A stretch of DNA of 64,000 bases from positions 23,651 through 87,650 of IMG/VR virus record IMGVR_UViG_3300030116_004830; one strand, given 5' to 3'. The position numbers and the translations under genes are program-made. Origin of the DNA: a virus. Each line of letters starts with the position of its first letter. Position 1 is the first letter of the stretch. Under the pieces are notes generated by a model, which saw only the letters and a program-made list of their open reading frames with translations, was not told where the DNA came from and ran no database searches. This document shows positions 23,001 to 58,324 of this stretch, in pieces.

Positions 23001-24299
23001 TCATGCCTCCTTAGCAACTGGTATTTTTGAAATAGCCTCTTCTAATTTTTCTAATCTAGCCTTTAATAGATTTAGATAATATTTACGAGCCATATTGATT
23101 TTATCTGCTGTAAACTCACCTGCTCTACCTGCCGTCATTCCTGCACGACCAAGACCTCTAACCCTTTCAGTTTGACCAGTAGTAGCCGCCATTGTAGTTT
23201 TAGGTTTTAGAATAGCCGTTTTGATTTTTCTCCAAACTGTTTTGATTTCAACTAGGTTATTCAATTCGTCCCCTTCAAATTTAGGAATTTTTTCACCCTC
23301 ATCATCTAATTTAAATTTACCATAATTAGGATTATCTTCGGTATCATAAATGGTTTCAGGTTCTCCTTTTTCATTTGTAATAGTGGTTGGTTTTCTGATA
23401 GTTCTTCTATCATCTATCTCATACAATTTTTTTTCCGATATTGGTTTAAGAAGAATAGTAAGAGTCATAGTAAAATCATATAGAATATCCTTATCCAATA
23501 TATCTCTAGGAGTGTTCTTAATTATGATTCTCTCTAAATCCTTCTTGTTTTCAAATATAGAATCAATCAATATGTTTCCAAAATTTTCACCTTCATCTTT
23601 TAATGCTAAAGTCCCCTTTAATCCATCGGAAATTTCTACTATAGAAGAATCGGAATCAGGAGATGTTCTAGGCTTTTTTGGTTTATGCAAAGCAACTTCT
23701 ATTCCTAATTTTTCATACCATTTTATTTTACCGTGTTCTTCTTCAGGAGTATCAGAGCGCATATTAAATTTCAGAACTATTTTATTTTCAGGACTGTTTT
23801 CATCATAAGTAAGGAACTCTTTTAATTTTGCTTTAGTTTCAGTGCCGAAAACAGCATCTTGAAGCCTCTTTTCAAAATCTTTTAGAGTATATTCCTGTTC
23901 TAAAGCATCTTTTTCTTTAAATGGAGTAATCAATTGTTCTGTCTTAGGAATGTTTCTTACATCCTTTAATTTATAATCTTCAGGAAATTCGTCTAAATTC
24001 ATATGTTCTTTTAATTTGCCCAAAGGAATATCTGTTACCAATTCCTTTAATGAAGCATTCATTAATTTATCAAGAGTTTTCTTACTAGTTTTTTTCAAAT
24101 ACTCTTCTGTCTCTTTAGTATATGATTGTCCTCTTTCCTCTAGCAGTTCGTCCTGCTCATCTAAGATTTCATCTTCTAATTCATCAATTTGATTCTTCCT
24201 ATCTTGTTGATAAGGTATGAGAATATAATCTCTAAAGGACTGATAGAATCTACTATCGCTGACCTCTTGAAGAGTGCCGTCATACCATATTAGTTTCAT
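23001..24299 (-). CDS. Hypothetical highly charged protein (432 aa)
   Basis: Long in-operon ORF; no recognised motif. Confidence 0.6.
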   Translation of the reverse strand: MKLIWYDGTLQEVSDSRFYQSFRDYILIPYQQDRKNQIDELEDEILDEQDELLEERGQSYTKETEEYLKKTSKKTLDKLMNASLKELVTDIPLGKLKEHMNLDEFPEDYKLKDVRNIPKTEQLITPFKEKDALEQEYTLKDFEKRLQDAVFGTETKAKLKEFLTYDENSPENKIVLKFNMRSDTPEEEHGKIKWYEKLGIEVALHKPKKPRTSPDSDSSIVEISDGLKGTLALKDEGENFGNILIDSIFENKKDLERIIIKNTPRDILDKDILYDFTMTLTILLKPISEKKLYEIDDRRTIRKPTTITNEKGEPETIYDTEDNPNYGKFKLDDEGEKIPKFEGDELNNLVEIKTVWRKIKTAILKPKTTMAATTGQTERVRGLGRAGMTAGRAGEFTADKINMARKYYLNLLKARLEKLEEAISKIPVAKEA

Positions 24300-53127: not shown

Positions 53128-53308
53128 AGAAACCCTCCACTAAACCAAGCCTAGCGCCATTTAACTAATAGAGATATGGTCTAATCATTAAATTATAACA
53201 GTGTAAGGCTTATCATTAAATGACGTTCAAATAAAAATTTTTTTCACAAAGCCATATGGTTGGAGGCTTTGCTATCCAACCTTATGAGTATTAAAAATAC
53301 CATCTGAT

Positions 53309-53455
53309 ATGAGTGATGAAAAGTTGGACCCGTTTCACGATGATTATGAAATCGTAATGACCAAAAAGGAACTATACCATTTAGAGATATTGCGGGCAAT
53401 GGGGCTTAACTTTGAAATGCTTAAGATAATGGGACCAGAAGGTGAGGAGGAATGA
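53309..53455 (+). CDS. Cassette 1, leaderless 48-aa ORF (MSDEKLDPFHDD...)
   Basis: Below the track cutoff; follows the cassette promoter; stop overlaps the next ATG. Confidence 0.6.
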   Translation: MSDEKLDPFHDDYEIVMTKKELYHLEILRAMGLNFEMLKIMGPEGEEE

Positions 53456-53956: not shown

Positions 53957-54036
53957 TGTGTGGAGCAATACCCGTTCAGTGTGAAGATTGTGGGCGCTGG
54001 TATAGGATAGGCAGTTGCCAATGGTGTAAAGAATAA
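53956..54036 (+). CDS. Cassette 1, 26-aa zinc-finger microprotein (MCGAIPVQCEDCGRWYRIGSCQWCKE)
   Basis: TGATG coupling, GGAGG RBS, CxxCG...CxxC. Confidence 0.5.
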   Translation: MCGAIPVQCEDCGRWYRIGSCQWCKE

Positions 54037-54038
54037 AT

Positions 54039-54048
54039 CCCTTCGGGG
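54039..54048 (+). terminator. CCC-TTCG-GGG hairpin ending cassette 1 (same type at 54411-54422, 57943-57954 and minus-strand 56776-56787)
   Basis: UUCG-capped hairpins at the 3' end of four cassettes. Confidence 0.55.
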
Positions 54049-54123
54049 TAGTAGACAAAAGCACTACCATATGGTAATGACTTTGTAAATTACCTTAACA
54101 TAGTTTATCCGCTAACTACTATT

Positions 54124-54405
54124 GTCGAGGTGACGGCCTCGGCAGGGAATGACCGAATAGAGCCTGTGCTGGGCGCTAAGGTATTCTCCTTCGTGTGGTG
54201 CGACACTGCCTTATCAGCATGGCCTAATGGTTAGATGGGTAAGTAGTAGTGAAAAGTCCTTAATCCTCAAAAGGGGAGTTGCCTAACTAACAACTTGGAC
54301 AGGAGAAGTAGTCATGCTAAACCAATCGAATGGATTGAAACGGCGCAAAACGAGAGAGGCGGAATCCTCTCATGACTTGAAGGTAGCCAGTCCTTCTTCC
54401 CACCT
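54124..54405 (+). ncRNA. Cassette 2, putative ~280-nt structured RNA
   Basis: Promoter and terminal hairpin but no ORF; GC-richer than the genome; many stems (GAGAGG/CCTCTC, GAAGG/CCTTC, AGTCATG/CATGACT, AGTTG/CAACT, TGCTG/CAGCA). Confidence 0.65.
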
Positions 54406-54514
54406 TTATTTCCCTTCGGGGATTTAAGGTTCTTCATCTCAAAGTTAGAACCATATGGTGAGGTAACTTTGAGGTAACACGAACCTCATATAGAATACGG
54501 ATTAACTACTATTG

Positions 54515-54730
54515 ATGTGGCAAGAACGTAAAGAATGGAGACAGTGGCATACGGTTGATTTTCCTGTAACAATTGGAAATGTTGAATATAATTCAATTAG
54601 ACCGTTAATGAAGATGGTTAGGGAGAGATACCCTTGGAGAGAGTGGAAAGTTATCAAGCATTATTACTACGGGGCATTTTGGGAGATTAAGTATTCTACA
54701 GATGCACATATGAGACAGGAGTGGGGTTAA
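54515..54730 (+). CDS. Cassette 3, leaderless W/R-rich protein
   Basis: ATG immediately after CTACTATTG. Confidence 0.6.
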   Translation: MWQERKEWRQWHTVDFPVTIGNVEYNSIRPLMKMVRERYPWREWKVIKHYYYGAFWEIKYSTDAHMRQEWG

Positions 54731-54865
54731 ATGAAAGCAAGAGATTTATTGAGAATGACGGTTAAAGAAGTGAAAGAAATCGAGCAACAACTATGGAAAG
54801 AATGGGAAATCGCAAATAAAGTGCTTAAGGTGCTGACGGAAATTGAGAAGGAGGAAGAAGAATGA
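54731..54865 (+). CDS. Cassette 3, 44-aa coiled-coil ORF (MKARDLLRMTVKEV...)
   Basis: Below the track cutoff; coupled to both neighbours. Confidence 0.6.
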   Translation: MKARDLLRMTVKEVKEIEQQLWKEWEIANKVLKVLTEIEKEEEE

Positions 54866-55044
54866 GCAAAATGGCAAAATGGATTAGTGAAAACTGGAAG
54901 TCGATTTGGGGACATGGAACTTATCTATGTGCTAAAGATGGTAGAGAGGCAGAAAGTGGCTTTTATGTCGTAGTGCCTTTAGACATGATTGTTGAGGAAT
55001 TGGGAGTTAGTAGGAATTACCTGATGTATGGAGAGGATGAATAA
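54862..55044 (+). CDS. Cassette 3, hypothetical protein
   Basis: ORF track. Confidence 0.6.
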   Translation: MSKMAKWISENWKSIWGHGTYLCAKDGREAESGFYVVVPLDMIVEELGVSRNYLMYGEDE

Positions 55045-55205
55045 TGTTTCAAAGACGACATATGATAGTTATAGCAGAGATACTGAAAGAACAAGGAGCA
55101 ACATATCAAAATATCAACAGATGGGCTGATATGCTTGGTCATTACAACCACAATTTTGACCGTGAGAAGTTCTTCAAGGCTTGTGGGAAGGAAGATTCGG
55201 GGTAA
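55044..55205 (+). CDS. Cassette 3, 53-aa ORF (MFQRRHMIVIAEIL...NFDREKFFKACG)
   Basis: TAATG coupling; FDxxxFxxAC motif recalled from small phage proteins. Confidence 0.65.
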   Translation: MFQRRHMIVIAEILKEQGATYQNINRWADMLGHYNHNFDREKFFKACGKEDSG

Positions 55206-55441
55206 CGCCCGTTTCTCTCCTTATTCTCAAAGTTAGTCGCTACACTTGTTGCGTTACCATATGGTCTTGAAATATGTGCAGATATAGGAACACTTCGATA
55301 GATTAATCTCAAAACTCTAGCATGTTTTACTACCAATCTGAGATTATTTCCTAAGTTGCCGCAGTAAACAGCAAATCGAAGATTTTTCATTACCATATGG
55401 TATTGGGCTTTGTAATCAATACCTCAAGAGTAAAAATTTCA

Positions 55442-55512
55442 GACCCCACCATCACATCCGCTAAGATGCTGAAACCAATAGGGTGCTACCCGTATTTCTA
55501 GATGGTGGGGTC
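55442..55512. ncRNA. Three-way-junction element closed by a 12-bp perfect stem
   Basis: GACCCCACCATC...GATGGTGGGGTC enclosing CATC/GATG and GGGT/ACCC hairpins. Confidence 0.45.
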
Positions 55513-55545
55513 CTAAAGCCAATACTTTTCATTTCTTCACCTCAA

Positions 55546-56529: not shown

Positions 56530-56822
56530 GATAGTAGAGATAGTTTTCTTAACATAAGGTTCCTTCTACTCAAAGTTAGTCACCATATGGTTTGGTGAAA
56601 AATGTGGCTTTTCCTGAAGCGAGAGTATTTGAATCGACAATTATGAAAATAATCTCAAATGAGTAGCAATGTGCTAGAGATTTCAGATTACAACATTCTC
56701 TACAGAATTTGAGCCTATTTGCGGACAAATTTCATTACCATATGGTAGCGCTTTGTATATCTACCCTACAAGAAATGCCCGAAGGCAAATCTTGTTGGGG
56801 TGCAGGCCAAGAACGATTAGGC

Positions 56823-57864: not shown

Positions 57865-58324
57865 GAAACTGGGGAGTGTTTTGAATGTTTACACAGGTAA
57901 GGGAGCCTCGGCAGATATGCCAAATAGCCGAACCAAACATTCACCCTTCGGGGTCATTATTCTCAAAGTTAAGACCATATGGTAACGGAAAAAACAGATA
58001 AACTGCAAATTGATTTTTCTTAAAGTTAAGTTTTCACTGCCGCCCTTTTCATAGCCCCATTTATATACTTTCCAAGAAGGCCGCTACCGAGAATGATTCA
58101 ACATTCATTCTTAGATTATCTCGCATGGAGATTGACCTCTTCAGTGCGACTAATACCTAACCTCAATATATCAACGCAGTATAACAGGGTAGTCAATCTT
58201 ACCACCCATTTTCGTATGGGTTTTATTGGGTTACATTCAATTGGTATATACAGTATAATATATTGTATAGGTATCAGGTATTTAGTAAATAATATTTGAT
58301 TTGATAATATCGGATTTCCTTTAT

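Follow-up and report, generated by a model that had tools for sequence, protein, structure and literature searches.

An enlarged manA-family RNA in an insertable cassette of a putative magrovirus

What does a viral cassette specify when it possesses a promoter and an end hairpin but no gene? The locus that raises this question lies in a 64,000-nucleotide stretch of DNA (hereafter the window), corresponding to positions 23,651 to 87,650 of the IMG/VR virus record IMGVR_UViG_3300030116_004830. The initial annotation, made from the sequence alone, recognized there a cassette that encodes nothing other than a structured RNA of about 280 nt. It considered this RNA to be novel, without a match to any known class, and to be handled by the virus as interchangeable cargo, for example as an anti-defense decoy, a sponge, or a ribozyme. 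The UUCG end hairpin (CCCTTCGGGG, at 54412) that it described is indeed present, and so is a putative promoter, but the class to which the RNA belongs is a known one.

An enlarged and divergent member of the manA family

A search of the whole window with the covariance models of Rfam 15 returned two matches only, a tRNA and a manA RNA (RF01745). The latter spans positions 54126-54406 on the plus strand and covers the model over its full length (model positions 1-192), with 62.5 bits (gathering score 55.2 bits) and an E-value of 1.5e-13. The claim of a class without known members was therefore wrong. Apart from a weak chance snoRNA match upstream, the Rfam scan detected no other family at E ≤ 1 between 53900 and 54600 and none at E ≤ 0.1 between 54400 and 58200, and neither self-cleaving ribozymes nor the ROOL and GOLLD families gave a covariance-model match to the cassette RNA region. 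In the Rfam alignment, the window RNA displays the signature nucleotides of manA, including GGGAnUGACnGAAUA, GGGAAUGACCGAAUA, UAAGGU, the GUGGUG loop, and the closing UCCCACC, and its insertions with respect to the model at the breaks shown (16, 35, and 50 nt) are all situated in peripheral arms. This full-model match, together with the signature nucleotides, places the RNA in a known class as an enlarged and divergent member of the manA family (~284 nt, as compared with ~190 nt in the canonical form). Canonical manA copies score 181-195 bits on RF01745. Among the eight relatives of the window RNA listed on this model, L124 lies above the cut-off (64.4 bits) and the other seven lie below it (41.9-52.4 bits), the E-values of these relatives ranging from 1e-7 to 4e-14. 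Most enlarged variants are thus below the Rfam threshold and are missed by routine annotation.

The first description of manA drew on marine metagenomes, T4-like cyanophages, and two gamma-proteobacteria and proposed it as a cis-regulatory riboswitch candidate (PMC2864571). With the canonical RNAs of cyanophages, marine metagenomes, and Photobacterium, the window RNA shares not only the end-to-end model match and the signature nucleotides but also a GUGGUG-type L5 loop, the closing CCC, the order of helices P1-P9, and the same two nested multi-helix junctions; both are virus-borne and both come from marine surface water. It differs from them by its enlarged P6 and by its three-way P7 and P8 arms (Table 1). 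The plus strand of the region folds at -95 kcal/mol, which is exceptional with respect to dinucleotide shuffles (z = -2.30; 1 of 200 shuffles as good), whereas the fold of the minus strand is unremarkable by the same measure (z = -0.08). The closing helix P2, in which GGGAA (54145-54149) pairs with UUCCC (54397-54401), is kept in all 14 sequences of the alignment described below. Most of the helices that had been drawn by eye in the initial annotation, as well as its multibranch layout, are borne out by covariation. They include the 5′ hairpin, AGTCAT/ATGACT (54310-54315 with 54372-54377), GAGAGG/CCTCTC (54354-54359 with 54366-54371), and GAAGG/CCTTC (54379-54383 with 54392-54396). By contrast, two of its pairings have to be rejected: TGCTG-TAAGGTA/TGCCTTA-CAGCA appears neither in the minimum free energy fold nor in the consensus fold, UAAGGU being a conserved unpaired manA signature, and the CCCA of the supposed long-range TGGG/CCCA contact belongs to the UUCCC strand of P2, the partner of which is GGGAA.

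Table 1. Features of the manA cassette and of its RNA in the window
Feature	Position	Strand	Basis
Left CCATATGG palindromic core, left boundary of the cassette	54067..54074	.	Single core at this site in G001
manA cassette, 384 bp (arm, promoter, RNA, T-run, CCCTTCGGGG hairpin, arm, second core)	54075..54458	+	Absent in G001
TATA-box-like TTAACATA, center ~26 nt 5′ of the first base of the RNA	54095..54102	+	Sequence; putative archaeal-type promoter
Initiator-like 11-mer AACTACTATTG; its last G (54124) is the first P1 base and the predicted transcription start	54114..54124	+	
Expanded manA-family RNA, ~284 nt	54124..54407	+	5′ end predicted from the promoter, 3′ end from the T-run
P1, 5′ hairpin GUCGAGGU-GACG-GCCUCGGC	54124..54143 (54124-54131 with 54136-54143)	+	Fold and relatives
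Invariant signature GGGAAUGACCGAAUA, P2 5′ strand and junction	54145..54159	+	14/14 magrovirus-type sequences and canonical consensus
Inner multi-helix domain, closed by P4 (UUCUCCU/AGGAGAA)	54184..54307	+	Consensus fold, helices 4-10
P5, loop GUGUGGUG	54191-54203	+	Within the P4-closed domain
Enlarged P6	54204-54251	+	Within the P4-closed domain
Enlarged three-way P7, conserved CUCAAAAGG hairpin and L7b hairpin	54256-54300	+	Within the P4-closed domain
Enlarged three-way P8 (AGUCAU/AUGACU)	54310..54377	+	Consensus helices 11-13; 50-nt insertion relative to the Rfam model
P8 inner hairpins	54316-54344, 54354-54371	+	Fold and covariation
P9 hairpin GAAGG-UAGCCAGU-CCUUC	54379..54396	+	Compensatory changes at 4/5 pairs; 100% of cells paired
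T-run CCTTTATTT and CCCTTCGGGG UUCG-loop mini-hairpin, predicted archaeal-type termination region	54403..54421	+	Sequence
Right CCATATGG core, opening the promoter unit of the next cassette	54451..54458	.	Sequence and G001 alignment

Pattern scans of IMG/VR viral contigs and JGI metagenomes yielded 13 further distinct copies of the enlarged type, 44-65% identical to the window RNA, ten of them (those from IMG/VR) on viral contigs of 56-97 kb. The 120 matches listed in the metagenome scan were mostly due to chance, the real ones being L148, L195, L234 (a duplicate of L090), and L238. An exact GGGAATGACCGAATA scan of viral contigs gave 28 matches, none of them genuine, and a phage collection contained no match to 54000-54520 by distant blastn or to 40000-64000 by megablast. 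Cellular genomes provided four true matches, all of the canonical cyanophage type, and no magrovirus-type copy was found among the cellular genomes scanned.

We aligned the window RNA and its 13 relatives with MAFFT (alignment A2) and computed their consensus structure with RNAalifold, which recovered 69 pairs in 14 helices, with compensatory double changes at 43 of these pairs. Standard pairing is observed in 94.7% of the cells, as against 42-44% when the partners are slid by 1-3 columns, and double-changed cells amount to 180, as against 14-38 in the slid controls; none of 500 shuffles reached the observed values of pairing and covariation. The architecture supported in this way comprises P1, the closing helix, P3, the P4 domain with its three hairpins, P8, and P9, and the added arms covary too, namely the long P6, the three-way P7 with its almost invariant CUCAAAAGG hairpin, and the three-way P8. 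MAFFT misaligned P1, the pairing of which was checked clade by clade: its stem differs among clades and still pairs (GCUGG/CCAGC, GUUGG/CCAAC, GUCUAAAG/CUUUGGAC, and CUUCGGGGGG/CCCCUCGGAG). GGGA.UGAC.GAAUA and UCCCA are invariant in the 14 sequences, and UAAGGU is replaced in some relatives by UAAAGU or UAAUGU with a compensating change at column 32. The many conserved G-U pairs (e.g., columns 73/79, 151/157, and 160/180) indicate that the plus strand is the functional RNA strand. This 14-member covarying alignment, most members of which lie below the Rfam threshold, is new or better resolved here.

Could a short conserved protein-coding ORF explain the conservation of the region instead? Some relatives do contain minus-strand ORFs of 87-90 codons, but these are accidental. 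In the window copy of the region, stop-free runs reach no more than 41 codons in any of the six frames; no reading frame, on either strand, is open across all 14 homologs; the lengths of the indels do not follow a triplet period; and the substitutions occur as compensatory pairs. This explanation is effectively refuted. The initial annotation had named an absence of covariation and a conserved short ORF among the findings that would speak against an RNA gene; given the covariation and the frame analysis, neither is the case, and its description of the cassette as devoid of ORFs holds. The segment from 54124 to ~54407 on the plus strand is a real structured RNA gene and is non-coding.

Transcription unit, cassette boundaries, and host virus

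Upstream of the RNA, the window carries what looks like a complete promoter (Table 1). All relatives are preceded by the same arrangement of CCATATGG, TATA-like box, and (T)AT(T)G, with AACC(A/T)TATA-like boxes at equal distance in 13 of 13 and the (T)AT(T)G at the position of the initiator-like AACTACTATTG. The latter motif recurs in the window at 54504-54514, directly before the ATG (54515) of the next cassette, which is leaderless relative to its own promoter, also made up of a CCATATGG core, a TATA-like box, and an initiator. The spacing of the TATA-like box and the recurrence of AACTACTATTG before a leaderless ATG suggest that the RNA starts at or next to 54124. On the 3′ side, the closing helix is followed by ACC, the T-run TTTATTT, the CCCTTCGGGG mini-hairpin, and the next CCATATGG promoter unit, and a T-rich tract follows CCCAYC in 12 of the 14 homologs. 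The RNA is therefore predicted to be transcribed from its own archaeal TATA-type promoter, from G54124 to the T-run at ~54405-54411, as a discrete RNA and not as a 5′ UTR. The next start codon is found 109 nt from the RNA, behind its own promoter at 54483-54514, although some read-through from the RNA into the next cassette may occur. This stand-alone organization contrasts with that of canonical manA, which usually lies in the 5′ UTR position: in 49 of 83 unique canonical copies an ORF of at least 50 codons starts within 60 nt (median 48 nt), and a minority have terminator-like hairpins or tRNA genes 3′ of the RNA.

Other transcription units of the region have comparable features. First-gene start codons abut the initiator-like motif (54504-54517, with CTATTG immediately followed by the ATG at 54515; also 53278-53311), lie ~26-28 nt 3′ of a TATA-like box, and look like those of leaderless archaeal-type mRNAs, and the internal cassette genes have GGAGG-type ribosome-binding sites. 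The CCCTTCGGGG motif, with a 3-4 bp stem and a UUCG loop, is present at 54039-54048, 54412-54421, and 57944-57953 and recurs at cassette ends before the next CCATATGG, in the related genome G001 as well. It is too short for a bacterial-type terminator, and may be a 3′-end stabilizer, a processing site, or a recombination accessory.

The boundaries of the cassette can be defined at the base level. The window contains 12 copies of CCATATGG (0.92 expected), 11 of them within a 4.7-kb array. The related genome G001 is 100% complete and encodes a capsid protein with 96% identity; it aligns collinearly with the window over 48-62 kb at 72-92% nucleotide identity, and the window segments 54039-54085 and 54450-54517 both align to one and the same G001 site (L430 8263-8356). 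At this site G001 has a single CCATATGG, the left arm of which corresponds to the left junction in the window and the right arm to the right junction. The two genomes thus differ by exactly one 384-bp module between two cores, and the RNA is therefore a discrete insertable cassette. In G001, the downstream genes and their promoter are retained in the absence of the RNA, which is consequently not needed by these genes. BLAST and motif searches, in which the positive controls were found, revealed no manA copy anywhere in G001-G004, the four near-complete genomes whose capsids are most alike, and the invariant manA core is missing from all four. The RNA is present in more distant magroviruses of 96 kb, so that its distribution among magroviruses is patchy, and the small genes beside it in the relatives are different, shuffled, or inverted. 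The notion of interchangeable cargo put forward in the initial annotation fits these observations well. The delineation of the cassette to the base, together with that of the empty site in a sister genome, is new or better resolved here.

Which virus carries it? The source record (87.65 kb, 96% complete according to IMG/VR) encodes, upstream of the window (L318, G000:C1:1-20000), a TCP-1/thermosome-type chaperonin, an ATP-dependent DNA ligase, an RFC clamp loader, and a Cas4-like nuclease, as well as a family-B polymerase split into two ORFs (L318 12822-14513 and 14940-15869). Its portal protein is similar to that of haloarchaeal tailed viruses and to that of Methanomassiliicoccales viruses, and the window contains a tRNA gene. 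A search with the capsid protein retrieved 1346 relatives, the source names of which were uninformative on the host. Such a gene set, split polymerases, and, in some groups, a tRNA-Arg characterize the magroviruses of Marine Group II archaea (PMC5434244). Its gene content identifies the record as a magrovirus, one of the tailed viruses assigned to these archaea; the assignment of magroviruses to archaeal hosts is itself indirect because no host has been cultured. The known range of canonical manA comprises T4-like cyanophages, gamma-proteobacteria, and marine metagenomes, in contrast with the window copy, which resides in a putative magrovirus behind an apparently archaeal-type promoter. In the literature searched, we found no report of manA in an archaeal virus, and this archaeal-type promoter context, as read from the sequence, is new or better resolved here.

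Loop-loop contacts and alternative readings of the RNA

Canonical manA RNAs have been seen by cryo-EM, in a preprint of July 2026, to form closed homo-oligomers, namely a 60-subunit icosahedral-like cage, decamers, and octamers (10.64898/2026.07.01.735769). These assemblies are built from pentamers in which L5-L7' and L8-L9' (or L3-L8') form the connecting kissing loops, and the RNAs involved, all of less than 200 nt and assembled in vitro, combine a conserved core with variable peripheral helices (10.64898/2026.07.01.735769). In 102 unique canonical sequences, L5 is GUGGUG in all 102 and L7 is ACCA in 99, and CUGU in L8 and ACAG in L9 are swapped jointly to AUGU and ACAU. The near-invariance of L5 and L7 and the joint change of L8 and L9 indicate that natural selection acts on the canonical loop contacts. 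L5 reads GU(G/A)GU in the magrovirus type, and the P7b loop carries AC(C/U)A; 4 or more nt of the two loops are complementary in 13 of the 14 sequences. In the window, UGGU faces ACUA with one G-U pair, and the incompatible combination UAGU/ACCA was never seen among the 14. The complementarity of L5 and L7b amounts to 4.71 within a molecule and 4.51 across clades, a weak covariation; with a cross-clade control almost as high, these data are consistent with a kissing contact, short of proof. A counterpart of L8-L9 is not recognizable: in the window, where P8 is rebuilt as a three-way arm, neither L8b (CGGAAU) nor L8a (GAAUG) has a complementarity of at least 4 nt with L9 (UAGCCAGU), and an all-against-all comparison of L3, L8a, L8b, and L9 revealed no pair of kissing partners above the cross-clade controls. 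The window RNA has the core fold family of the cage-forming RNAs, and the complementarity of its L5 and P7 loops may allow a contact like L5-L7', but its enlarged arms would alter the geometry of any assembly with respect to that formed by RNAs of less than 200 nt.

We consider it reasonably probable that this locus is a stand-alone gene for an enlarged manA RNA in a magrovirus, the product of which is a discrete, trans-acting RNA that self-associates into closed multimers. Starting at G54124 from its own promoter of putative archaeal TATA type and ending at the T-run, the transcript would fold into the conserved manA core, and loop-loop contacts would join its copies into closed multimers acting in trans in the infected cell. 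With its three enlarged peripheral arms, the RNA would assemble in a different geometry, and the assembly may serve for enclosing, scaffolding, or sequestering. Much more tentatively, archaeal viruses might deliver a cage-forming enlarged manA into Poseidoniales cells by means of a mobile, promoter-equipped cassette, the cage being a device common to bacterial and archaeal viruses and exchanged by CCATATGG recombination, a scenario that is conceivable but that we do not expect to hold in full.

An RNA that acts in trans could also work as a monomer, for instance as a protein-binding decoy or sponge or as an anti-defense RNA, as the initial annotation had imagined. A stand-alone cassette with an accessory, patchy distribution is typical of counter-defense or host-takeover cargo, and the invariant single-stranded motifs (UGACCGAAUA, UAAGGU, and the CAAAA loop) could be contacts with proteins or other RNAs. 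We nevertheless regard a monomeric function as rather unlikely, as we saw no protein gene whose occurrence follows that of the RNA, ribozyme families gave no match, and the only property of the manA family known from experiments is homo-oligomerization. Less probable still is a cis-acting regulator, in which a riboswitch-like leader would bind a ligand and thereby control read-through of the T-run into the genes at 54515-55205. It is under this heading that Rfam and Weinberg 2010 (PMC2864571) class manA, in agreement with the short distance to an ORF in many canonical copies, and in the window the downstream genes share the strand of the RNA, and the T-run abuts the closing helix. Against such a leader, a full promoter is interposed between the RNA and the next, leaderless ATG; the same genes and promoter do without the RNA in G001; the relatives have other non-coding DNA or different, shuffled genes 3′ of theirs; no overlapping terminator/antiterminator or start-site sequestration was seen at the window copy; and no ligand of manA is known after 16 years. 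Finally, the locus belongs to an array that comprises 11 CCATATGG palindromes and shows inversions and indels at their cores, which might point to a DNA-level element, such as a recombination accessory site or an origin, the RNA fold of which would be incidental. This is highly improbable in view of the pairing kept by compensatory changes, of G-U pairs whose counterparts on the other strand would be A-C mismatches, of the strand-specific stability of the fold, and of the homology with an RNA family for which RNA structures have been solved.

The window copy bears on the family as a whole. Since 2010, manA has stayed an orphan "riboswitch candidate", and this copy is not easily seen as a leader; its own promoter, its T-run, the second promoter behind it, and its clean 384-bp presence/absence support a function of manA as an independent RNA, which agrees with the cage report (10.64898/2026.07.01.735769). 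The family is also extended from bacterial viruses to viruses assigned to archaea, so that whatever manA does would work in both cellular backgrounds or would need the RNA alone. ROOL and GOLLD are large (~600-800 nt) phage-associated non-coding RNAs of bacteriophages and bacteria that have been reported to form multimeric cages. Like them, the window RNA is ornate, virus-borne, and stand-alone, and self-assembly is the main known property of those RNAs, but it is much smaller and matches neither Rfam family. The source genome and G001 (the G000/G001 pair) offer a natural with/without comparison for metatranscriptomic or ecological analysis, and the enlarged arms a natural variant with which the control of assembly geometry by peripheral helices can be tested.

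Other elements of the array and sequences adjoining manA copies

Several other observations concern the CCATATGG array and the surroundings of manA genes. The segment 56727-57460 of the window is inverted with respect to G001 (L430 10440-11173; 86% identity on the opposite strand) between collinear flanks. It is bounded by CCATATGG cores at 56738 and 57452, and the inversion has therefore taken place at cores of the same type as those of the manA cassette. A second ORF-less cassette (55401-55530) contains, at 55441-55513 on the plus strand, a fold with a 12-bp helix (GACCCCACCAUC/GAUGGUGGGGUC) enclosing two small hairpins (z = -3.36; 0 of 200 shuffles as good); neither an Rfam family nor a tRNA corresponds to this candidate small RNA.

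On the 3′ side of manA, most other magrovirus copies have a conserved non-coding stretch of ~340 nt that finishes with a GCCCC...GGGGU hairpin, after which comes CCATATGG (L126:810-1148, L130:10181-10551, L090:8359-8726(-), L127:5445-5784(-), L195:2641-3010(-), and L148:546-874(-)). RNAalifold predicts 52 pairs in it, 11 of them with compensatory changes, and it either extends manA on the 3′ side or constitutes a second RNA. An nhmmer search found no match to this stretch in the window, the copy of which is a minimal, manA-only magrovirus form of ~284 nt, new or better resolved here.

Canonical manA has neighbors of its own. A contig of the metagenome-assembled genome "Methanobacteriota archaeon NAT150" (L253, PADI01000053.1), which we considered as a possible archaeal carrier of manA, proved to be cyanophage-like DNA: its manA is canonical (182 bits), its RNase H and other genes match T4-like cyanophage genomes, and it is probably mis-binned. 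Many cyanophage-type copies (L014, L015, L017, L024, L028, L045, L051, L052, L057, L059, and L063) are followed by a conserved hairpin, AGACCUAAGAUGCAACU...GGGGCAGAUGGUCU, with a U-run. It matched no Rfam family at the gathering score in the three loci searched (L014, L028, and L051) and may act as a conserved terminator or represent a small RNA of its own. In L006, L034, and L050, canonical manA is adjoined by tRNA genes.
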